31,829 nt of DNA from an uncultured Leptotrichia sp. Lineage in GTDB: Bacteria; Fusobacteriota; Fusobacteriia; Fusobacteriales; Leptotrichiaceae. Both the position numbers and the translations under genes were made by a program. Below are positions 6,056-16,616 of the stretch, in pieces. Numbering within the stretch: position 1 is the first letter of the stretch; each line of letters opens with the position of its first letter. The stretch spans positions 1-31,829 of the forward strand of contig CALIJH010000167.1 in the NCBI GenBank assembly GCA_938017765.1. The letters run 5' to 3'. The notes beneath the pieces were generated by a model. The model worked only from the letters and a program-made list of their open reading frames with translations. It was not told the origin of the DNA and ran no database searches.

Positions 6056-6943
6056 ATGAAAAAAATGAAAAAAATTGCACTTTTGGCATTAGTAACAGCG
6101 TTAGTAATAACAGGGTGCGGAAAAAAGGAAAACAAGGAGGACGGAAAAAACGGAACAACAGCACAGGCAGAACAGAATAATGGGGCAGTAGATTTGAGCA
6201 AGGAAACGGCGGAATATAAAAAATTTGTTGAAGAGCAGATTGATATGCTTCTGAAAGATACTGAAAATTTTGCTCAATTATTGAAAAACGGAAAACTTGA
6301 AGAAGCTAAAAAAGTATATCCGTTAATACGTATGGCTTATGAAAGATCAGAGCCTATTGCTGAAAGTTTTGGAGAATCCGACATTAAGATAGATTACCGT
6401 TTAGTGGACTTTAAAGAGGAATTTAATACTGAAGAGGGTTGGAAAGGTTTCCATAGAATTGAAAAAATATTATGGGAGCAAAATACTACAAAGGGTACTG
6501 AAAAGTATGCTGATGAGCTTGTAAATGACATCAAGGAGTTGAAAGCCAAAATAGCGACTATAGAAGTAACTCCTGACATAATGCTTACAGGAGCTATAGA
6601 TTTATTAAATGAAGTTTCCACTCAAAAAATCACAGGAGAGGAAGAAGTATTCTCCCATACTGATTTATATGATTTTAGAGCAAATATTGAGGGAGCACAG
6701 AAAATATTTGAACTATTTAGGTCAAAATTAGAAAAAAAAGACAGCAAACTTGTAGCAACTTTAGATTCAGAGTTTAAAGCTGTAAACGGACTGCTTGACA
6801 AATATATGACAGATGATAAAAACTATAAACTGTACACTGACTTGACAAAGGAGGACACAAAAGCACTTGCGGAAGCTGTAACCAAGCTTGGAGAACCTTT
6901 ATCCCAAATGGGAATAATACTGGATGTAAAAGAAGGTAAGTAA
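6056..6943 (+). CDS. efeO: EfeO/EfeM-like iron-uptake lipoprotein (imelysin / peptidase M75 fold)
   Basis: Lipoprotein signal with lipobox (LVITGC). The M75/imelysin HxxE motif is present (GFHRIEKILW). RBS GGAGG lies 10 nt upstream. At 295 aa there is no N-terminal cupredoxin domain, so it is closer to EfeM-type. Confidence 0.8.
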   Translation: MKKMKKIALLALVTALVITGCGKKENKEDGKNGTTAQAEQNNGAVDLSKETAEYKKFVEEQIDMLLKDTENFAQLLKNGKLEEAKKVYPLIRMAYERSEPIAESFGESDIKIDYRLVDFKEEFNTEEGWKGFHRIEKILWEQNTTKGTEKYADELVNDIKELKAKIATIEVTPDIMLTGAIDLLNEVSTQKITGEEEVFSHTDLYDFRANIEGAQKIFELFRSKLEKKDSKLVATLDSEFKAVNGLLDKYMTDDKNYKLYTDLTKEDTKALAEAVTKLGEPLSQMGIILDVKEGK

Positions 6944-6944
6944 T

Positions 6945-8186
6945 ATGAGTGATGATAACAAAGAAAAAAAATGGTTTGATAAAAAAATATCCCGTCGTGA
7001 TTTTTTAAAAAAAGCGGGAATAGCCGGAGCAGGAGTTGCAGTAGGGGCGACAGGTGTCGGTGCCATTATGTCAAGCCTATTCGGCAATGTTGCCGAACAG
7101 TTTGAGGGGAAAGACGAAATTTCCTTTTATGGAAAACATCAATCGGGAATATCCACTCCCGTACAGAAAAATGTATACTTTGCAGTACTGGAGTTACATT
7201 CCGAAAATAAGGAAGAAGTCAAGGAAATGTTCAAGGAATGGACAGATTATACTGAAAAAATGATGAAAGGGGAGCTTATAGCTCCCGAATTGAAAAATCA
7301 TCTGTTGCCTCCTGTCGATACTGGGGAAACGGTAGGATTAAATCCTTATCGTTTGACTGTAACTTTCGGAATAAGTCCGACATTTTTGGATAAACTGAAA
7401 CTGGACAGTAAAAAAATTGAAGAATTTAAAGATTTGCCCCATTTCCCGAGAGACCAGATAAAAGAACGTTATAAAGGCGGAGATATATGTATTCAGGCTT
7501 GCGCCGATGACGCACAGGTGGCTTTTCATGCGGTGAGAAATCTTGTTCGTAAAGGACGTACACTCATTACACTGAAGTGGAGCCAGTCAGGATTTTTGCC
7601 TATAGGGAATGGAAAAGAAACTCCGAGAAATCTATTCGGATTTAAGGACGGGACTGAAAATCCGAAAAATGAAAATGATTTTAATAATATAGTATGGTAT
7701 GATAAGGATAACTGGCTGAAAGACGGAACATATATGGTGGTGAGACGTATCCAAATGCACCTTGAAACATGGGACCGTACTAATTTGCAGGAACAGGAAA
7801 ATACATTCGGAAGATATAAAGAAAGCGGTGCTCCTTTCGGAGAAAAAGATGAATTTGCCGTGATTGATATAAATAAAAAAGGACCTGACGGAAATCCCGT
7901 ACTTCCCATTGACTCCCATGTGTTTTTAGCAAAAAAGGCTGAAACGAAAATCTGTCGCCGTGCTTTTTCCTATTCTGACGGAATTAATGAAATAAGCGGT
8001 CAGTTTGACGCAGGACTGCTGTTTATATGTTTTCAGAAAAATCCTGAACAGTTTATCAAAATCCAGAACAGTCTCGGAAACGAAGATAAGCTGAATGAGT
8101 ATATTACTCACATAGGTACAGGGATTTTTGCATGTTTCGGAGGGATAAGGAAAGGGGAATATATTGGCCAAAAATTATTTGAATAA
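6945..8186 (+). CDS. efeB: Tat-secreted DyP-type peroxidase / deferrochelatase EfeB
   Basis: Twin-arginine signal SRRDFLKKAGIAGAGVAVGA. DyP-type peroxidase family similarity throughout. It follows efeO with a 1-nt gap. Confidence 0.9.
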   Translation: MSDDNKEKKWFDKKISRRDFLKKAGIAGAGVAVGATGVGAIMSSLFGNVAEQFEGKDEISFYGKHQSGISTPVQKNVYFAVLELHSENKEEVKEMFKEWTDYTEKMMKGELIAPELKNHLLPPVDTGETVGLNPYRLTVTFGISPTFLDKLKLDSKKIEEFKDLPHFPRDQIKERYKGGDICIQACADDAQVAFHAVRNLVRKGRTLITLKWSQSGFLPIGNGKETPRNLFGFKDGTENPKNENDFNNIVWYDKDNWLKDGTYMVVRRIQMHLETWDRTNLQEQENTFGRYKESGAPFGEKDEFAVIDINKKGPDGNPVLPIDSHVFLAKKAETKICRRAFSYSDGINEISGQFDAGLLFICFQKNPEQFIKIQNSLGNEDKLNEYITHIGTGIFACFGGIRKGEYIGQKLFE

Positions 8187-9846
8187 ATTCAGAATTACGT
8201 TATTAGTGTGTTTTGTTTTCTTCTGTGCTAATATTATTGCAAAAGAGAGTTACAGTGAAATTTATGTAAAAATAACCGATGCAACTACTGCCCTTAGAAA
8301 CAATGATAAAAAAGAAGCAGAAAAAATTGCAAAAGAAATAAAAGAAAAATTTAGGACTGTAAAAAATGCCAATTCTCCCCAAGGGTCAAAAGTACAGGAA
8401 CTTCTGAATAAAGGAGATGTAACTGAAGATAATCTGAAAGAGATTACAAAAGCACTTCTGGCATTTGAAAAGGAACAGAATCCTGTTGACGAAACTCAGG
8501 TGAAAAAAGATTTTAAAGCGAAAGTGTTTCCTGCTCTTGATACTCTGGAAAAAGTTATTCGGAGTAAAGACGTGGAAGCTATGAAAAAGGAATATCTGAA
8601 ATATAACGGCGTTTGGACAAGAAATGAAGCAGTAATTAGGGATAGAGACACCGTTTATTACGGAAAAGTCGAAACTGCCATGGCTTTCCTGCGAAGCTCC
8701 ATGGAAATGGAACCTTTCAACTACGACAATGTCATAAGCTCATTTAATGACCTGAAAACCGTTATTCAGGAATTTCTCGACGGAAAGAAAGTCGAAAATG
8801 CTTCTTCTGAAAACATTACTTTAAAACAGGCTGTAGATTTGCTGAAAGAGGGACTTGACGCATTTAAGTCAGGAGATAACGGTACGGGGCAGTCAAAAGT
8901 AAAAAAATTTATACAAGTCTGGCCTACTGTAGAGGGAGATGTAAGTACACGTAACGGTGCCCTTTATACAAAAGTTGAGACACAGACACCCGTAATAATG
9001 GTAAAAGGCGGAGAAAAGCAGTATCAGGAGCAGTTGCAGGGATTGATAGACGAACTGTCCCAAATTGACACAAAAGCCGAATATACTTTTTTGGATGCGA
9101 TGTTTATACTGCTTCGTGAAGGAGTGGAAGCATTGCTGATAGTATTGGCACTGGTGAGCGGACTGAAAGCTGCAAATCAGAAACGTGGACTGAAATGGGT
9201 ATACGCAGGAGCAGTAGCGGGAATTCTTGCGAGTATCGTTATTGCCGTTATTCTTCAAAAAGTGTTTCCGGCTGTGTCTTCGGGGACAAACCGTGAGATA
9301 CTTGAGGGATTTGTAGGTATATTTGCAGTAGCAATGATGATAGGAATAGGAGTATGGCTGCATAGCAGGTCTTCTTTGAAAGCTTGGAAAGACTATATGG
9401 AAAGAAAAATGAATATCGTAGTAAGTACGGGAAGTTTTATTTCGATGTTTGTATTGAGTTTTCTTGCCGTATTCAGGGAAGGTGCCGAAACAATACTGTT
9501 TTATGTAGGAATTTTACCTTTAATATCGGTGCAGAACCTCATCATAGGTATTTTGAGTGCCATCGTAATACTTATCATAATTGCATTGGTTCTTATATAT
9601 GCTTCTTCGAAAATAAAAGTACACAGAGTATTTTTTATACTCACATGGACTATCTATTTTCTTGCGTTTAAAATGTTGGGAACAAGTATTCATATGTTGC
9701 AGGTTGTGGGGGTTGTCCGTTTACATCTGATAAAATTTATACCTACGGTGGAAATATTAGGTATTTACGCGAACTGGGAAGTGTTTATAAGTCAGGTTAT
9801 TTTTATAATCCTGATTGCATCAATAACACTGAAAAGAAAAAAATAA
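8164..9846 (+). CDS. efeU: FTR1-family ferrous iron permease EfeU with ~290-aa N-terminal extracytoplasmic extension
   Basis: Two REGxE motifs (REGVEAL, REGAETI) in TM helices, typical of FTR1/EfeU. It has an N-terminal signal peptide. It apparently starts at TTG and overlaps efeB by 23 nt. Confidence 0.8.
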   Translation: MAKNYLNKFRITLLVCFVFFCANIIAKESYSEIYVKITDATTALRNNDKKEAEKIAKEIKEKFRTVKNANSPQGSKVQELLNKGDVTEDNLKEITKALLAFEKEQNPVDETQVKKDFKAKVFPALDTLEKVIRSKDVEAMKKEYLKYNGVWTRNEAVIRDRDTVYYGKVETAMAFLRSSMEMEPFNYDNVISSFNDLKTVIQEFLDGKKVENASSENITLKQAVDLLKEGLDAFKSGDNGTGQSKVKKFIQVWPTVEGDVSTRNGALYTKVETQTPVIMVKGGEKQYQEQLQGLIDELSQIDTKAEYTFLDAMFILLREGVEALLIVLALVSGLKAANQKRGLKWVYAGAVAGILASIVIAVILQKVFPAVSSGTNREILEGFVGIFAVAMMIGIGVWLHSRSSLKAWKDYMERKMNIVVSTGSFISMFVLSFLAVFREGAETILFYVGILPLISVQNLIIGILSAIVILIIIALVLIYASSKIKVHRVFFILTWTIYFLAFKMLGTSIHMLQVVGVVRLHLIKFIPTVEILGIYANWEVFISQVIFIILIASITLKRKK

Positions 9847-9936
9847 TAAAAATAAAATGATTTTGTCTACTTTTGTCCGTATAATGACAGTAGCCATAGC
9901 AAAAAAATAAAAAAGAAAAAAAGAAAGGATGTGTCC

Positions 9937-10647
9937 ATGTCGGAAGATAAAGCTCAAACATTAATAGAGCATATCGGAGAATTCAGGAAAAGGCTTATAA
10001 TAACAATAATATTTTTTCTGATTGCATTTTCAGTAAGTCTGATATTCTGTGCAGATATTTATAAAATGCTGACATATCCTTTTTCAAAAAAACTTGTCGT
10101 GTTAGGGCCTAACGATATTCTTGAGATATATATTACACTGGCAGGGATATGTGCTTTCAGTTTTACACTGCCTTTCGCGAGTTATCAGCTGTGGGCGTTT
10201 GTAAAACCGGGACTGAAAGAAAAAGAAGCTAAAATGGTGCTTTCATATATTCCCGCAATATTTATTCTGTTTGTTTCGGGACTTGCTTTCGGCTTTTTTA
10301 CGGTAACACCTGCACTTTTGAAAGTACTGCTTTCTATCGGGGAAGACCTGTTTAGTGTGCAGGTTACTGCACAAAGTTATCTGAAATTTGTAATACATAC
10401 TTCATTGCCTATTGCATTTGTTTTTGAACTGCCTGTTATAGCGGCTTTTCTGACATCATTACATATTTTGACCCCTGCTTATCTGGTAAAGAACAGAAGA
10501 TACGGATACTTTATATTGCTTGTACTGGCAGTCATTCTGACTCCTGCCGATTTCATAAGTGATTTGGCAATGACAGTACCGTTAATTCTGATTTATGAAG
10601 TAAGCGTCGTGGTCAGTAAATATATTTATAGGAAAAGGAGAGGATAG
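9937..10647 (+). CDS. tatC: Twin-arginine translocase subunit TatC
   Basis: Six-TM protein with the TatC N-terminal 'HIGEFRKRLI' region. AAAGGA lies 7 nt before the ATG at 9937. The ORF track starts 6 nt earlier at GTG 9931. Confidence 0.9.
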   Translation: MSEDKAQTLIEHIGEFRKRLIITIIFFLIAFSVSLIFCADIYKMLTYPFSKKLVVLGPNDILEIYITLAGICAFSFTLPFASYQLWAFVKPGLKEKEAKMVLSYIPAIFILFVSGLAFGFFTVTPALLKVLLSIGEDLFSVQVTAQSYLKFVIHTSLPIAFVFELPVIAAFLTSLHILTPAYLVKNRRYGYFILLVLAVILTPADFISDLAMTVPLILIYEVSVVVSKYIYRKRRG

Positions 10648-10650
10648 TAA

Positions 10651-10845
10651 ATGGGAATTTTTAGAGATATTGGGACACCCGGACTGATAGTCATAATACT
10701 GGGAGCATTACTTATTTTTGGACCTAAACGTCTGCCGGAACTGGGAGAAGCTGTAGGAAAAATGCTTAAAGAATTTAAAAAATCAATGTCTGATATAACA
10801 GATGAAAACGATACTAAAAAAAATGATGACAAAGAAAAACAGTAA
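10651..10845 (+). CDS. tatA: Twin-arginine translocase subunit TatA/E
   Basis: 64 aa. Single TM followed by the amphipathic helix LIFGPKRLPELG, the canonical TatA motif. Strong RBS GGAGAGG. Confidence 0.9.
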   Translation: MGIFRDIGTPGLIVIILGALLIFGPKRLPELGEAVGKMLKEFKKSMSDITDENDTKKNDDKEKQ

Positions 10846-10932: not shown

Positions 10933-10963
10933 AATATGTAACTTTAGTTACATATTTTTTTTA
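10933..10963 (+). terminator. Rho-independent terminator after tatA (ATATGTAACT-tt-AGTTACATAT + T8)
   Basis: Perfect 10-11 bp inverted repeat followed by a T-run. It lies 90 nt downstream of the tatA stop. Confidence 0.6.
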
Positions 10964-11030
10964 TGAATATGATATAATTGGATATACAAAATAATTGAAT
11001 ATATAATTTTTTGATAGATTAAAGATAAAG

Positions 11031-11095
11031 TTTATAAAAAAAGAAAAAAGAAAAAAGAAAAAAAAGAAAGAAAATAGAAAAAGAAAGGCAGCATA
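11031..11095. repeat. Poly-purine simple sequence repeat (AAAAAAG)n
   Basis: Runs of A6-8 punctuated by single G (aaaaaaagaaaaaagaaaaaagaaaaaaaagaaagaaaatagaaaaagaaagg) in the intergenic region upstream of the DUF1858 cassette. Confidence 0.8.
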
Positions 11096-11212: not shown

Positions 11213-12439
11213 ATGAATAAATTTTTCGGCTTAAATGATACATTGTATCAAATTGTGGAAAAATATCCCGAAACACTCGAATTTTTTATAGCTAACGGAT
11301 TTGAGCAGCTAAAAAATAAACAGATGTTTGAGTCAATGGCAAAAAATATAAAACTCAATATGGCTTTAAAAATAAAGAAAATCAATCCTGAATTGTTTGA
11401 AGAAAAATTAGTTGCATTTTTGCAGAAAGACAGCGAAACTGATATCTCCCTTGAGGGGAAAAAGGAAAATGCCACGGGAGATATACTTATAGAGGGAGTT
11501 TTACCCTGTCCTATCAGGATACCTCTGCTGGAAGGCATAAAAAAATGGGCTGAAACGAGAAATAAAGAAGTAGATTATAAGATAGATTATGAATTGCAGT
11601 CGGCAAATCTGGGCTTGGACTGGGTTGTGGATAAAGTGAAAACAGGAAACCCTGATAAAGTCTCGGATATACTCTTATCGGCAGGGTTTGAGTTGTTTTT
11701 TGACAAGGAGCTTATGGGGCAGTTTATGGAAAAAGGAATATTTGAAACATATTTAAATGATATGAACAAAGATTTCTGTAATGAAGAAATTGACTTAAGA
11801 GACCCTAAAAAACAGTATGCCATAATGGGAGTAGTCCCTGCTGTGTTCCTTATAAATAAAACAGTTCTTGGAGACAGAAAGCCACCTGAAGTATGGGAAG
11901 ATATATTGAGCGAAGAACTGGAAGATTCGGTAGCTTTACCGATGAATGACCTCGACTTGTTCAATGCTCTCATTATCAATATATACAAAGACTACGGTTC
12001 TGAAGGTATTCAGAAACTTGCAAGGTCTTACAAGAAAAATCTTCATCCGGCACAAATGGTGAAAGCCAAAGGGAGAAGTGGAGACGCACCTGCCGTAAGT
12101 ATAATTCCGTATTTCTTTACACAGATGCTAATGGGAGCGACCGACCTCGAAGCCGTATGGCCGAAAGACGGGGCGTTACTCAGTCCTATATTTATGATTA
12201 CAAAAAAGTCCAAAAAAGATAAAATTCAGCCTTTTATAGATTTCTTTATGTCCGAAGAAATAGGGACACTGTTTTCCGCTAACGGAAAATTTCCGTCGAC
12301 AAATCCCAATGTGGACAATCATCTGAAAGAAGACCAGAAATTTAAATGGATTGGCTGGGATTTCATTCATAGCAATGACGTCGGAGGATTAGTCAGAAAA
12401 TGCGAAGATGAATTTAACGAAGCCATTATGAAATTATAA
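11213..12439 (+). CDS. Cytoplasmic DUF1858-like N-terminal domain fused to a periplasmic-binding-protein (PBP type II, SBP family 1-like) domain; function unknown
   Basis: 408 aa with RBS AAAGGAG. The first ~70 aa (…EKYPETLEFFIANGF…) resemble DUF1858/ScdA_N. The C-terminal part carries 'IQPFIDFFMSEEIGTLFSANGKFPS', resembling the SBP_bac_1-type 'FIDFLLSxEgQ' motif. No signal peptide. Confidence 0.65.
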   Translation: MNKFFGLNDTLYQIVEKYPETLEFFIANGFEQLKNKQMFESMAKNIKLNMALKIKKINPELFEEKLVAFLQKDSETDISLEGKKENATGDILIEGVLPCPIRIPLLEGIKKWAETRNKEVDYKIDYELQSANLGLDWVVDKVKTGNPDKVSDILLSAGFELFFDKELMGQFMEKGIFETYLNDMNKDFCNEEIDLRDPKKQYAIMGVVPAVFLINKTVLGDRKPPEVWEDILSEELEDSVALPMNDLDLFNALIINIYKDYGSEGIQKLARSYKKNLHPAQMVKAKGRSGDAPAVSIIPYFFTQMLMGATDLEAVWPKDGALLSPIFMITKKSKKDKIQPFIDFFMSEEIGTLFSANGKFPSTNPNVDNHLKEDQKFKWIGWDFIHSNDVGGLVRKCEDEFNEAIMKL

Positions 12440-12554
12440 TAAAATAACTGTGATGAAGATAAAGATCTGAATTATAGTTATAACAATATCAAAGAATATC
12501 AAGGTGTATGATAAGATATGATAAGACAAAAAAAATGATTATTCAGGAGGAAAT

Positions 12555-13259
12555 ATGAATTTAATAATAGTTTCAGGACCACCCTCATCAGGAAAAACAA
12601 GTGTAATATTGAAAACTGTTGACGCCCTGAAGAAACAGGGAATGTCAGTGGGAGTAGTAAAATTTGACTGCTTGTATACAGATGACGATATATTGTATGA
12701 AAAAGCAGGAATACCTGTAAAAAAAGGTATTTCGGGAGCATTATGTCCTGACCATTTTTTTGTATCGAATATAGAAGAAGTAGTACAGTGGGGCAGAAGT
12801 TTGGGACTTTCCATGCTTATAACCGAATCGGCGGGTCTTTGTAATCGTTGTTCGCCATATATAAAGGATATAAAAGGGATATGTGTAATCGACAATCTGT
12901 CGGGCATAAATACACCTAAAAAAATAGGACCTATGCTGAAAGCCGCAGATATAGTTATTATTACTAAAGGAGATATTGTTTCGCAGGCTGAAAGGGAAGT
13001 ATTTGCCTCAAGGGTAAATTCTGTAAATCCCGGTGCTATAACAATGCACGTAAACGGGCTTACAGGACAGGGAGCCTATGAATTAAGCACACTGCTTTAT
13101 GAAAAGGAAAAAGAAATAGAAACTGTTCAGGGGAAAAAACTCAGATTTCCTATGCCGTCGGCTCTATGTTCCTATTGTCTTGGGGAAACGAGAATAGGAG
13201 AAAAATATCAAATGGGAAATGTCAGAAAAATGAATTTAGGCGGTAATAACGATGAATAA
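12555..13259 (+). CDS. SIMIBI-class P-loop GTPase, G3E family-like (HypB/UreG/CobW-like putative metallochaperone)
   Basis: Walker A GPPSSGKTS at residue 8. Switch-II-like ESAGLCNRCSP (cf. HypB ENVGNLVCP). TKGD (NKxD-like) and a 'NGLTGQG' G5-like motif are present. Additional C-terminal CSYC motif. Strong RBS AGGAGG. Confidence 0.7.
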   Translation: MNLIIVSGPPSSGKTSVILKTVDALKKQGMSVGVVKFDCLYTDDDILYEKAGIPVKKGISGALCPDHFFVSNIEEVVQWGRSLGLSMLITESAGLCNRCSPYIKDIKGICVIDNLSGINTPKKIGPMLKAADIVIITKGDIVSQAEREVFASRVNSVNPGAITMHVNGLTGQGAYELSTLLYEKEKEIETVQGKKLRFPMPSALCSYCLGETRIGEKYQMGNVRKMNLGGNNDE

Positions 13260-14265
13260 AAAACTTGTAGATGAACTGAAAATGTCCGAATTACTGGACA
13301 AGTATCCTTTTACGGAAAATTTTTTCAGTGAAAATGTTATCGACATAAAAGGTCATGAAAATGAGACATTCAGTGAGTTCTTAGATAAATTTGCCGAAGA
13401 AGAAATAGAAGATATGGCATTGGATACAGAAAAAATAAAAGAGGGGTTAATCGAATATATCGAACAGATGAAGCTGTTTCTTGGAATGGAAGAAGAGAGC
13501 GGTGTCGAAGTTCTGACAATAATTGCGGGAAAAGATAAAACGGGTAATCCTGAAGGTTTTGAAAGACTTGATATAAACAAATCGGAAATAATATCTATAG
13601 TAGGGCCTACAGGCTCTGGAAAATCAAGACTGCTCGCAGATATAGAATGGACGGCTCAAAAAGATACGCCGACACAGAGAGAAATACTTATTAACGGGGA
13701 GCTGCCTGACAAAAAATGGAGATATTCATCAAACAATAAGCTTGTCGCCCAGTTATCCCAAAATATGAATTTTGTCATGGATTTATCCGTGAGGGATTTT
13801 TTGGAATTGCATGCTAAAAGCAGAATGATAGATGATATTCAGGGAGTAACTGATAAAATCATAGAAGAAGCAAATAAACTTGCAGGAGAGCAGTTTAATC
13901 TCGATACGCCGATTACAGCCCTCAGTGGGGGACAGTCAAGGGCATTGATGATAGCAGACACTGCAATACTAAGTTCTTCGCCTATAGTCCTGATAGATGA
14001 GATTGAAAATGCGGGAATTGACAGAAAGAAAGCCCTCGATTTACTCGTTTCATCAGATAAGATTGTACTTATGGCGACTCATGACCCCACATTGGCATTG
14101 ATAGCCGATAAAAGAATTATAATCAAAAATGGAGGTATTTCAAAAATAATAAAAACAAGCCCTAAAGAAAAGAAAATTTTGTCAAAGCTTGAAGAAATGG
14201 ATAATATTATCCAAAAAATGAGAACAGATTTAAGAAATGGGGAAATATTGACAGATAATAAATAA
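13252..14265 (+). CDS. Soluble ABC-type ATPase with N-terminal DUF1858-like module (no cognate permease in locus)
   Basis: Walker A GPTGSGKS, ABC signature LSGGQSRAL, Walker B IVLIDEIENAGID and H-loop MATHD are present. The N-terminus MNKKLVDELKMSELLDKYPFTENFF is paralogous to the N-terminus of the 11213 ORF. It overlaps the upstream GTPase gene by 8 nt. Confidence 0.8.
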   Translation: MNKKLVDELKMSELLDKYPFTENFFSENVIDIKGHENETFSEFLDKFAEEEIEDMALDTEKIKEGLIEYIEQMKLFLGMEEESGVEVLTIIAGKDKTGNPEGFERLDINKSEIISIVGPTGSGKSRLLADIEWTAQKDTPTQREILINGELPDKKWRYSSNNKLVAQLSQNMNFVMDLSVRDFLELHAKSRMIDDIQGVTDKIIEEANKLAGEQFNLDTPITALSGGQSRALMIADTAILSSSPIVLIDEIENAGIDRKKALDLLVSSDKIVLMATHDPTLALIADKRIIIKNGGISKIIKTSPKEKKILSKLEEMDNIIQKMRTDLRNGEILTDNK

Positions 14266-15366: not shown

Positions 15367-15590
15367 TAATCAGAAATAAAAAATTCTGGTCTATTCGTTA
15401 CCGACGATACAATTTTTGGGCTTTACTCTTTCTTAATGGGGTCAGACTTTTGTATTTTGAATCAGGCACATCACGGCGGTTCTATACTTTGCACGGATTC
15501 TGTACAATTTACAAATATGACTACCACCTGTACCAACTACAGGCGACCAAAAATTCAGTCGAAACGGTAGATTGGATTTTTTTAATTTGT
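15367..15590 (+). ncRNA. Candidate small non-coding RNA (GC-enriched structured region driven by consensus promoter); identity unknown
   Basis: About 220 nt with clearly higher GC than the flanking intergenic DNA. It contains several hairpins (e.g. CCTGTA-ccaac-TACAGG at 15528-15544) and no ORF longer than 16 codons. It ends in a T-rich stretch near 15590. Confidence 0.3.
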
Positions 15591-15953: not shown

Positions 15954-16616
15954 TTATAATTTCGAAAAATCTACCTGATATTTATTGTTTTTAATTTTTT
16001 TCAAAATACCTCTATCGCATAATGTCGAGATTTCCCTCGAAAGGGAGGGTCTTGTAATTTCAAATTTTTTTGAAAGTTCGGATATATTGGGCTGAAATGA
16101 GATAATCCCGTCTTTTTGATTTTCCCTTATATAGCTGAGGATTTTGTCATTTATAGTTTTATTGACAAAATTAAACCATATTCTTTTGGATAAAAGCTGA
16201 CTTTTATTGGATATTTCATCGAGGAAATTTAAAAGAATTCTCTTATCCTCCTGCATAATTTCCACAAAATCTTTTTTATTCAGAAATAAATATTTGGATT
16301 TTTCAACGGAAATGAGGTCTACAGGGAAAACTTTAGTATCTCCGAATATAAATGCGGGAGCTATAATTTCGTAAGTTTTTATAAAGTCAATAGTGATAGT
16401 TTCTCCCCCTGATTTCTGCATTTCCCCTTTGGCAGAGCCTTCGAGGATAATGATGATATTTTCAATATTATCTCCTCTGAAAAATACCGTTTCATTTTTT
16501 TTATAATTTCTGATATGATAATTTATTTTTTTTAGTACGGCTTCTGTTTCATTTATGTCAAATCCTTTAAATAAGGAAACTTTTGATATTATTTTATAAA
16601 GTTCGTGGGGTTTCAT
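15954..16616 (-). CDS. Crp/Fnr-family transcriptional regulator (cNMP-binding domain + C-terminal HTH)
   Basis: 220 aa with an N-terminal cyclic-nucleotide-binding-like beta-roll. C-terminal HTH 'ISELSKKFEITRPSLSREISTLCDRGILKK'. There is no N-terminal Cys cluster, so it is not an FNR-type O2 sensor. RBS GGGAGG. Confidence 0.85.
   Translation of the reverse strand: MKPHELYKIISKVSLFKGFDINETEAVLKKINYHIRNYKKNETVFFRGDNIENIIIILEGSAKGEMQKSGGETITIDFIKTYEIIAPAFIFGDTKVFPVDLISVEKSKYLFLNKKDFVEIMQEDKRILLNFLDEISNKSQLLSKRIWFNFVNKTINDKILSYIRENQKDGIISFQPNISELSKKFEITRPSLSREISTLCDRGILKKIKNNKYQVDFSKL

Follow-up and report, generated by a model that had tools for sequence, protein, structure and literature searches.

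Homologous cysteine-less DUF1858/ScdA_N-type domains on an SBP-fold protein and an ABC ATPase in a conserved cassette of anaerobes with a predicted HcpR operator

Small helical domains of the DUF1858 family (PF08984) have been solved from Streptococcus pneumoniae (2fi0) and Clostridium thermocellum (2k53), with 2k5e as a further structure, and share a YP hallmark after helix 1. These solved domains stand alone and the family has no known function, so that membership in it explains little. TIGR03980 is the hybrid-cluster-protein-associated redox disulfide domain, and RIC proteins (e.g., YtfE of Escherichia coli and ScdA of Staphylococcus aureus) are di-iron proteins of the response to nitric oxide (NO) and nitrite stress. 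The literature links the regulator HcpR to these same stresses, and Hcp is a main NO defence enzyme of anaerobes, oral and gut pathogens included. The ScdA_N domain contains a DfCCgG cysteine motif (PMC9268430), and YtfE, a relative of ScdA_N, belongs to a pathway of NO/Fe-S repair of which Hcp is also part (PMC9052748, PMC9268430). The three genes analysed here, A, B and C, furthermore have likenesses to the G3E metallochaperones (HypB/HypA, UreG/UreEFH and CobW/COG0523), to the type I importers FbpABC and FutABC and to the HcpR regulon (hcp, frdX) of strict anaerobes.

The stretch of DNA examined, hereafter the window, comprises 31,829 nucleotides from an uncultured Leptotrichia sp. (GenBank assembly GCA_938017765.1, contig CALIJH010000167.1). 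Gene A (11213-12439, + strand) encodes a protein of 408 amino acids in which a disordered linker joins a DUF1858 domain to an FbpA/FutA-like fold. Residues 1-75 (11213..11437, + strand) form a canonical DUF1858 domain (PF08984, E=1.2e-15) that resembles the Cys-less 2fi0 type: residues 7-62 reach 57.8 bits against a Pfam gathering cut-off of 32.2, the N-terminus scanned alone reaches 60.3 bits, and a profile of 42 gene A N-termini (A2) matches PDB entry 2fi0 with E=3.7e-9. The AlphaFold model places helices at residues 11-76, and its two confidently modelled domains are separated by a linker of low confidence (pLDDT<50) at residues 73-86. Residues 90-408 (11480..12439, + strand) adopt a cytoplasmic solute-binding-protein (SBP) fold of the FbpA/FutA class (Pfam SBP_bac_6, E=2.7e-82), in which the motif LPCP (Cys99) and His278 are invariant. 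A search of the PDB with full-length A by sequence gave no match. Foldseek placed P5PA, FutA1, cFbpA and FbpA on top for the SBP fold, at 11-18% identity; these fold neighbours are mostly iron-binding proteins, with P5PA, AfuA and PotD equally near. In public annotation A is named 'ABC transporter substrate-binding protein' or 'spermidine/putrescine-binding protein'. An exact look-up in a contig index found A on a 2.3-kb Logan contig only and C on none.

Gene C (13252-14265, + strand) encodes 337 amino acids that begin with a divergent DUF1858-like domain (residues 1-82; 13252..13497, + strand) and continue as a soluble ABC ATPase. A sequence-only reading of this DNA had proposed that A and C share a paralogous N-terminal module of 25 amino acids, and both open reading frames indeed begin with exactly the two peptides it quoted. 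Ten of the 30 leading residues are identical in an ungapped comparison (M1, N2, K3, K17, Y18, P19, T21, F24, F25 and N28), and BLASTP aligns the two proteins with 27% identity across 77 residues at an E-value, for the single pair, of 2e-4 that becomes borderline when every protein pair of the window is taken into account. Two N-termini rich in lysine and glutamate and encoded by an AT-rich genome could resemble each other at this level by chance, the more so given how little direct searches see of the C copy: the window's gene C N-terminus has no Pfam match even at E<=10, and a profile of 62 N-termini of gene C proteins (A1), used to search the PDB, found no DUF1858 chain but only chance matches such as GST and haemoglobin, which made a fold search necessary. 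Fold search and profile-profile comparison together refute such a low-complexity origin, which we regard as practically untenable. The fold of the gene C N-terminus is that of the solved DUF1858/ScdA_N members, and hhalign aligns profiles A1 and A2 over 66 columns with a probability of 95.8% (E=6.9e-9). Moreover, 27 of the 62 relatives in A1 match Pfam DUF1858 below threshold (best E=2e-4), the next commonest family being matched by three.

Profile and structure evidence thus settle that the N-termini of A and C are homologous, Cys-less members of the DUF1858/ScdA_N superfamily of helical domains. The sharing that had been noticed holds, and it extends well beyond the 25 residues first proposed, to a whole domain of 70-80 amino acids. 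For A the expected DUF1858 assignment is carried by the Pfam model itself; the C copy is too divergent for that model and contains an insertion of eight residues before the last helices, and its assignment to the DUF1858/ScdA_N type is made by profile-profile comparison and fold only. Because DNA identity between the 5' ends of the two genes is only 40-50%, the pair reflects an old duplication or fusion, and a recent DNA duplication is ruled out. Unlike the solved DUF1858 proteins, the A and C copies are each joined to a large catalytic or binding scaffold, a different one in each case within a single operon, as had been read from the sequence. The absence of the ScdA_N cysteine pair was likewise read correctly. 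There is no cysteine in residues 1-98 of A, whose first is residue 99 and which reads NGF at the position of the DfCCgG loop, and none anywhere in C. Neither module is thus an obvious metal or disulfide site. The hemerythrin di-iron domain of RIC proteins is missing as well, the partner domains here being SBP_bac_6 in A and ABC_tran in C, and regulation is predicted to involve HcpR rather than NsrR. With regard to TIGR03980, A has neither the Cys pair nor any assigned NCBIfam family, in a library for which the presence of TIGR03980 is unconfirmed.

Between the two genes lies gene B (12555..13259, + strand), a P-loop NTPase of the G3E type (HypB/UreG-like) that passes the Pfam cut-off for cobW (PF02492, E=1.3e-11; 44.9 bits against 20.7) and stays far below the NCBIfam equivalog cut-offs for hypB (40.5 against 121.2 bits) and ureG (30.2 against 204.2 bits). 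UreG and HypB are its nearest solved relatives, at an E-value of only about 1e-5; matches to 'RecA' at the top of its PDB list represent P-loop repeats and were disregarded. A link to selenoproteins (CobW_rel_Se and the DUF1858 selenoprotein families) was also rejected, the match being confined to the P-loop and no in-frame TGA being involved. B shares with the G3E metallochaperones the P-loop, ExxG, [NT]KxD and a Cys-Pro-x-His metal-type motif, and among 60 orthologues its motifs GPPSSGKT, ESAG, TKGD and CPDH are each at least 90% conserved. In contrast to the G3E systems, it has seven invariant cysteines that include two CxxC pairs (C39, C64 in CPDH, C96/C99, C110 and C205/C208), and its operon encodes no client enzyme. 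Membership of the G3E class makes GTP hydrolysis and metal binding candidate activities of B. To our knowledge, no known G3E system has an ABC ATPase and an SBP-fold protein as partners, as B has here.

The remainder of gene C (residues 83-337; 13498..14265, + strand) is a soluble ABC nucleotide-binding domain (Pfam ABC_tran, E=7e-16) with a complete set of motifs, namely GPTGSGKS, the Q-loop, LSGGQ, LIDE and THD; its Walker A, Q-loop, LSGGQ, Walker B and H-loop are conserved at 90% or more. This complete domain, together with the SBP_bac_6 fold of A, is what connects the cassette to importers of the FbpABC/FutABC type, and one could read it as an ordinary ABC importer of iron or polyamines, with the permease gene at some other place in the genome and with an N-terminal similarity that has no functional meaning. 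The Pfam matches and the public names of A speak for this, and so do the FecCD-type importer genes found near the cassette in about 12 loci. However, a folded domain of cytoplasmic type occupies the place in A where a signal peptide or lipobox would be, and A has no signal peptide, lipobox or transmembrane segment, its highest 19-residue hydropathy (1.57) lying inside the SBP fold. C contains no hydrophobic segment and no membrane domain, and neither signal peptide nor transmembrane segment is found in A, B or C. Furthermore, no permease belongs to the conserved unit across more than 60 loci, no family of permeases is a recurrent companion of the cassette in the 64 type-1 loci, and the nearby FecCD importers have an ATPase and a binding protein of their own. 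An ordinary importer is on these grounds very improbable; the cassette departs from FbpABC and FutABC in lacking permease, export signal and membrane segments and in carrying the same N-terminal domain on A and C.

A GTDB scan retrieved 80 loci. The order A-B-C is kept throughout L001-L064, which span Clostridia, Bacteroidales, Spirochaetota, Fusobacteriota, Cloacimonadota, Desulfuromonadales, Vibrio and methanogens, and B is the most conserved component. When the neighbourhoods were clustered, no fourth gene proved to be conserved throughout; the partners that recur do so in a minority of loci. In 20 loci C is followed by a small zinc-ribbon protein that is rich in cysteine and faintly resembles HypA (Pfam E=0.004), and Rrf2 regulators occur in about nine loci of both cassette types, six of them within two genes upstream of type-1 cassettes. 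The gene hcp adjoins the cassette in seven of about 64 loci, most neighbourhoods being unrelated. In the window, EfeUOB lies upstream of the cassette. None of A, B, C, the small protein D and the FeS-domain partner has a curated family in NCBIfam, and our literature search found no experiment or publication on the A-B-C cassette. The operon thus appears to be a widely conserved, membrane-free and unstudied machine of anaerobes.

The comparison of these loci also bears on what the two modules bind. The sequence-only reading had offered the GTPase as the common partner onto which both modules would dock A and C. B is placed between the two genes, is translationally coupled to C, whose start overlaps the end of B by 8 nt, and is the best conserved of the three proteins. 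Nevertheless, a sister system in 13 loci consists of a B'-C' pair that retains these invariant cysteines and has neither a DUF1858 module nor gene A, and in Fusobacterium the module has been lost from C, B remaining intact. Pairing of B with C consequently does not need the module, which leaves docking onto B decidedly unlikely and makes the GTPase the least favoured common partner. The C module tracks gene A and not gene B: it is present in 48 of the 53 complete loci with an A-like gene and in none of the 13 sister cassettes without gene A, a correlation confounded by phylogeny, since these are largely two clades. The modules are conserved among orthologues, and both are carried by 41 of the examined cassettes. 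The duplication is not universal, given the Fusobacterium C proteins and a module-less A-like protein in seven loci.

A further possibility is that the two DUF1858 domains are no docking elements but independent sensor or regulatory domains, each gating its own protein upon a redox signal or a small molecule (NO or nitrite, for example), in analogy to ScdA_N, which caps the channel of YtfE. We consider this rather unlikely. The cysteine pair on which ScdA_N function depends is absent from both copies (PMC9268430), and in the model of A the domain is predicted to be parted from the body by the disordered linker instead of packing on it. Independent sensors would also not lead one to expect that the module of C follows the presence of gene A, as it does in the loci just described.

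Upstream of gene A, the window contains a perfect HcpR2 operator, GTAACTTTAGTTAC (10938..10951, no strand assigned), the sole exact match in the window to the HcpR2 consensus GTAACnnnnGTTAC (PMC1274295). A TATAAT -10 hexamer (10973..10978, + strand) lies 21 nt downstream of the box, which is thereby centred at about -41.5 from the inferred transcription start, in the geometry of a class II activator at a predicted promoter. Spacings of 20-23 nt between box and TATAAT-like hexamer recur at nine or more further sites, namely in L001, L003, L011, L013, L016, L022, L054 and L055, and in the hcp promoter of L004. Among the 12 exact HcpR2 boxes in 603 kb of related loci, nine are located upstream of gene A at a distance of no more than 300 bp (P=3.5e-13); the other three are found upstream of an adjacent hcp (two) or of an Rrf2 gene that precedes A (one). 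In L004 and L011 hcp has an HcpR2 box of its own, and loci from Desulfuromonadales, Geobacter and Deferribacterales carry HcpR1/FNR-like boxes instead. Some features of the window's box speak against such regulation: it is 262 bp from the start codon, compared with 56-110 bp in other loci, and it sits in an 11-bp hairpin followed by T8 (dG -12.9 kcal/mol, z -4.96), a structure that could simply be the terminator of tatA. A relative similar to Leptotrichia shahii has only a variant with two mismatches, GTAATnnnnATTAC. CRP-like boxes of the form TGTGAnnnnnnTCACA are not enriched near the cassette, Rfam detects 6S RNA only in the window and no riboswitch in the 367-bp leader, and a scan for consensus promoters and terminators was uninformative in DNA as AT-rich as this.

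The window also encodes a regulator of the Crp/Fnr family (15954..16616, - strand; Pfam cNMP_binding and HTH_Crp_2) with the recognition helix TRPSLSRE. In L026/L011 a Crp gene located between C and hcp encodes the helix RPSLSRE too, and its product matches this regulator (BLASTP E=3e-13); the HcpR2 signature is a change of Glu181 to Pro in the recognition helix (PMC1274295). By its recognition helix the regulator is of the HcpR2 type, and it likely regulates the cassette. Operator, class II position and a nearby HcpR2-type regulator are thus shared with the HcpR regulon at the level of sequence prediction, and A-B-C is probably switched on together with Hcp in anaerobes. The HcpR regulon described for F. 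nucleatum contains only hcp (PMC1274295), and the cassette is not among the HcpR targets reported in the literature that we examined.

Taken as a whole, we favour the reading that the cassette is an NO-induced cytoplasmic system for the handling of iron or metal centres in which the twin domains serve as adaptors, and give this functional proposal about an even chance of being right. For the link to metal speak the hcp, Rrf2 and FecCD-type genes near cassettes, EfeUOB in the window, the mostly iron-binding fold neighbours of A, the invariant cysteines and HypB/UreG affinity of B, and the place of YtfE in NO/Fe-S repair. Such a system would be driven by nucleotides, would handle iron, or a centre that contains it, under nitrosative stress, and may serve to supply or mend the hybrid-cluster protein or Fe-S proteins that NO has damaged. 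A would be the cargo holder, B an inserter of the metallochaperone type and C the ATP motor. Lacking redox cysteines, the twin DUF1858 domains are most likely matched adaptors, which would couple A to the C dimer in place of the membrane domains of a real ABC importer or, alternatively, bring A and C to one client. This adaptor role would not be universal, considering the cassettes in which C or the A-like protein is without module.

A bolder form of this proposal, tentative and to our mind somewhat improbable, is that the cassette descends from an ABC importer that lost its membrane domains and became a soluble, NO-induced machine for metal delivery. The matched DUF1858 domains would then be the mechanical link that replaces the lost membrane domains. 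ATP-driven closure of the C dimer would force A to release an iron, Fe-S or Fe-NO species to B, and B would insert this species into Hcp or into Fe-S proteins damaged by NO, or would remove it from them. If true, it would represent a dedicated repair or maturation pathway of anaerobes and a functional counterpart of RIC/YtfE.

We know of no published account of the assembly or repair of the unusual Fe-S-O cluster of Hcp, nor of the way in which strict anaerobes restore iron centres damaged by NO. A-B-C is a concrete candidate for this task. It appears to share the regulator of Hcp and often its locus, and it brings together a metallochaperone-type NTPase, the fold of an iron-binding protein and an ABC motor. 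Genetically tractable carriers of the cassette exist in Fusobacterium nucleatum and Vibrio. For the long-orphaned DUF1858 family the twin modules provide a testable role as adaptors, and thousands of proteins that are at present annotated as subunits of transporters or as 'cobalamin synthesis protein P47K' would be due for renaming.

Two of the three proteins encoded in a conserved operon of the window begin with related domains. The operon, preceded by a 367-bp AT-rich gap, consists of the co-oriented genes A (11213-12439; 408 aa), which encodes a DUF1858 domain joined to a substrate-binding-protein (SBP) fold, B (12555-13259; 234 aa), which encodes a HypB/UreG-like P-loop NTPase, and C (13252-14265; 337 aa), which shares 8 nt with the 3' end of B and encodes an N-terminal module followed by an ABC ATPase. 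The sequence-only reading had described the N-termini of A and C as paralogous 25-residue, DUF1858-like modules, and the peptides it quoted are indeed the exact starts of both proteins. Compared without gaps, the first 30 residues are identical at 10/30 positions, and BLASTP aligns 77 residues at 27% identity with E=2e-4 (a single comparison), which alone is suggestive and not decisive. The 5' ends of the two genes share only 40-50% DNA identity, so a repeat of recent origin is ruled out.

The N-terminus of A is a plain DUF1858 member (residues 7-62; Pfam, 57.8 bits, cut-off 32.2), followed by SBP_bac_6 (Pfam, E=3e-82). In C, Pfam recognizes only ABC_tran, starting at residue 106, and the first 103 residues scanned alone give zero Pfam matches even at E<=10, so that the proposed likeness to the DUF1858 HMM stands for A and fails for C. 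Of 135 relatives matched for the C N-terminus, almost every one is an N-terminal piece of an ABC protein, and in an alignment of 62 of them (A1) Y18, P19 and M73 each reach at least 90% conservation. When the members of A1 are scanned singly, 27/62 touch DUF1858 (best E=2e-4), against 3/62 for the runner-up family. Comparison of A1 by hhalign with A2, an alignment of 42 A-type domains, gives a probability of 95.8% and E=6.9e-9 over 66 columns, i.e., the whole domain, with two compensating 8-residue gaps, at residues 38-45 and 54-61 of C, ahead of the last helices. The A-type profile also matches the sequence of 2fi0 (E=3.7e-9), a DUF1858 protein that is Cys-less, as is the module of A. Taken together, the Pfam assignment of A, the single scans, the hhalign result and the 2fi0 match identify the two modules as homologous domains of the DUF1858/ScdA_N superfamily; the homology proposed earlier thus holds, and the length is corrected to 70-80 aa. 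The module of C is a divergent subfamily beyond the reach of Pfam, placed in the superfamily by fold and profile-profile comparison where the Pfam model failed. Run against 1.84 billion cluster representatives, A1 finds 156 proteins, none of the SBP type; nearly all of them (the exceptions are three long multi-stretch matches) are ABC proteins or fragments that open with the module. The first Cys of A is residue 99, and C is free of Cys throughout; the absence of a Cys pair from both copies had therefore been noted correctly, and with neither this pair nor a hemerythrin domain in A or C, neither module qualifies as RIC/ScdA_N in the strict sense. A chance resemblance of the two N-termini is excluded.

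The cassette is widespread. Scanning one genome per GTDB species for the motifs IVGPTGSGK and SRLLADIEW yielded at least 80 loci, among which the A-B-C order recurs across L001-L064. These include Clostridia, Bacteroidales, Spirochaetota, Fusobacteriota, Cloacimonadota, Aminicenantes, Desulfuromonadales/Geobacter, Deferribacterales, Vibrio and Izemoplasmatales, as well as the methanogens Methanosarcina, Methanolobus and Methanocorpusculum. The closest named relatives are Leptotrichia, and the synteny A-B-C-DUF1275 is common to the window and a Leptotrichia shahii-like contig, which makes an origin in the Leptotrichiaceae probable for the window. Judged by HMMs of the two modules, both modules occur in 41 cassettes (window included), and single copies are found in others among the loci listed: on A only in 3 (two from Fusobacterium, the third a miscalled ORF), on C only beside a module-less A-like protein in 7, and on C without an A-like gene nearby in 7, some of them limited by contig ends. 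In the two Fusobacterium loci (L054:6770-7860 and L055:6920-7804), C lacks some 50 N-terminal residues, the last helix being all that remains of its module, DUF1858 is retained on A, and a perfect HcpR2 box is kept.

Public names of the three proteins are generic, e.g., 'ABC transporter substrate-binding protein', 'spermidine/putrescine-binding protein', 'cobalamin synthesis protein P47K / GTP-binding protein' and 'ATP-binding cassette domain-containing protein'; neither an NCBIfam model for the system nor a published paper on it was found. C contains, beyond its module, a complete ABC nucleotide-binding domain without a membrane part. B belongs to the G3E class of P-loop proteins (Pfam cobW) and is neither HypB nor UreG, which it matches only weakly and far under the equivalog cut-offs. 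Its conservation is extreme: all 7/7 cysteines, i.e., C39, C64 (CPDH), C96/C99, C110 and C205/C208, are invariant in 60 orthologues, and the motifs GPPSSGKT, ESAG and TKGD are also conserved.

The GTPase B had been suggested as the common docking partner of the modules, a reading retained as an alternative and argued against by a sister system found at 16 of the loci listed (L065-L080, 13 complete; e.g., L078:6995-9098) in Chloroflexota, Planctomycetota, Bacteroidota, methanogens and ANME. There, a short module-less C' (~260 aa) is followed by B', which has the same invariant cysteines as B, and by a Cys-rich protein with a PF04060 'FeS' domain; gene A and the DUF1858 module are both absent from these loci. 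Frequent neighbours are cysteine desulfurase, CysK, COG1900-type sulfur (homocysteine) genes and coenzyme M genes. The module on C thus travels with gene A and not with B, a contrast between two clades that amounts to about one evolutionary event and not to strong statistics. Coupling of A to C, or a client shared by the modules, is favoured.

Expression of the cassette is predicted from its operators to be under HcpR control. The window leader contains ATGTAACTTTAGTTACAT, whose core GTAACnnnnGTTAC (= GTAACTTTAGTTAC) at 10938-10951 matches exactly the HcpR2 consensus (Rodionov et al., PMC1274295) and is the sole exact match within the window, 262 bp from the ATG of A. Across 46 sequences with module-bearing A (603 kb in total), 12 exact boxes occur: 9/12 lie upstream of A and within 300 bp of it (binomial P=3.5e-13), 2/12 upstream of an adjacent hcp and 1/12 upstream of an Rrf2 gene preceding A. 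A predicted TATAAT (10973-10978) lies 21 nt past the box in the window, and the spacing of 20-23 nt to a TATAAT-like hexamer, found here and at no fewer than nine other sites, puts the box centre near -41.5; this arrangement precedes A in many phyla. Class II activators of the Crp/Fnr family bind near -41.5. One-mismatch boxes precede A in L001, L003 and L026, and the Leptotrichia shahii-like contig (L082:2186-2199) has only a symmetric variant, GTAATnnnnATTAC / GTAATATATATTAC, ~110 bp upstream of A. Desulfuromonadales, Geobacter and Deferribacterales loci carry instead the TTGACnnnnGTCAA type, assigned to HcpR of these lineages (PMC1274295). In Fusobacterium (L054, L055), perfect boxes lie upstream of A despite an F. 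nucleatum regulon published in 2005 with hcp as its sole member (PMC1274295). The window itself encodes a Crp/Fnr regulator (15954-16616, minus strand) with the recognition helix TRPSLSRE and the Glu181-to-Pro change that defines HcpR2 (PMC1274295); a regulator with an identical recognition helix lies between C and hcp in L026. The box in the window forms part of an 11-bp hairpin with T8 (U8) behind it; this structure (dG -12.9, z -5) could also, or only, be the terminator of tatA. A long purine-rich tract of (A)n-G repeats, aaaaagaaaaaagaaaaaag..., occupies 11040-11095 within the ~230-nt predicted 5' leader of A, and a 6S RNA (15380-15582, plus strand; Rfam RF00013, 53.3 bits) lies between the DUF1275 and Crp/Fnr genes.

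No further gene is universally linked to the cassette among the loci listed. Within the same set, hcp (Prismane) is a neighbour at 7 loci and absent from the window, a Crp/Fnr gene separates C from hcp in L011 and L026, and Rrf2 regulators occur at ~9 loci of both cassette types, 6 being within two genes upstream of type-1 (A-B-C) cassettes (Pfam). Class-V aminotransferases (cysteine-desulfurase-like) are recurrent minority neighbours. At 20 of these loci, in non-Firmicute lineages and not in the window, C is directly followed by an 80-aa Cys-rich zinc-ribbon protein (L009:8031-8276, L013:8031-8273, L022:8013-8270 and 17 others) with the pattern H-D-G-C...CxxC...CxxC...TPCH and a faint zinc-ribbon likeness to HypA (Pfam E=0.004), which with B echoes the HypA-HypB pairing. 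FecCD/Peripla_BP_2 importers occur at ~12 of the loci listed. FecCD/Peripla_BP_2/ATPase importer genes surround the cassette in L034, L036, L038, L044, L055, L057, L061 and L074, sometimes joined by a methyltransferase (class I) or DUF364-like gene, a setting that may connect the cassette with uptake of a metal chelate. In the window, the iron-uptake cluster efeO-efeB-efeU and then its own tatC-tatA immediately precede the cassette (6056-10845); EfeO is an imelysin, EfeB a Tat-signal Dyp peroxidase, and the 560-aa EfeU fusion has a long N-terminal extension before its FTR1 domain.

The AlphaFold model of A (pLDDT 85.8) comprises the DUF1858 domain, a disordered linker (residues 73-86, pLDDT<50) and a binding-protein fold (residues 90-408). 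Sequence searches detect no solved relatives; the nearest solved folds, at 11-18% identity, are P5PA, FutA1, C. jejuni cFbpA, FbpA, HitA and KfuA, mostly iron-binding proteins. The invariant residues include His278 and, in the LPCP motif that opens the fold, Cys99; a signal peptide, a lipobox and hydrophobic segments are all missing from A. An importer of the conventional type, its permease encoded elsewhere, is retained as an alternative; two hallmarks of ABC importers are missing from the cassette, namely an exported binding protein and a permease in the conserved unit. The cassette is a conserved operon of soluble, permease-less architecture, with HcpR-type operators and hcp adjacency, and would most likely form a cytoplasmic system, induced by nitrosative stress, that handles iron or an iron-containing centre. 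This assignment draws on the regulon, the iron-binding-protein fold of A with its invariant Cys and His, the HypB/UreG-like, cysteine-rich B, and the relatedness of the modules to ScdA_N of the RIC proteins, which act with Hcp in an NO/Fe-S damage pathway (PMC9052748, PMC9268430). Because they lack a redox pair and sit on flexible tethers, the twin modules would be adaptor and not catalytic domains; independent sensor or gating domains are the alternative kept beside this role. The domain observation alone is modest; the reason for following it up is a widespread, apparently HcpR-controlled SBP-NTPase-ABC machine.
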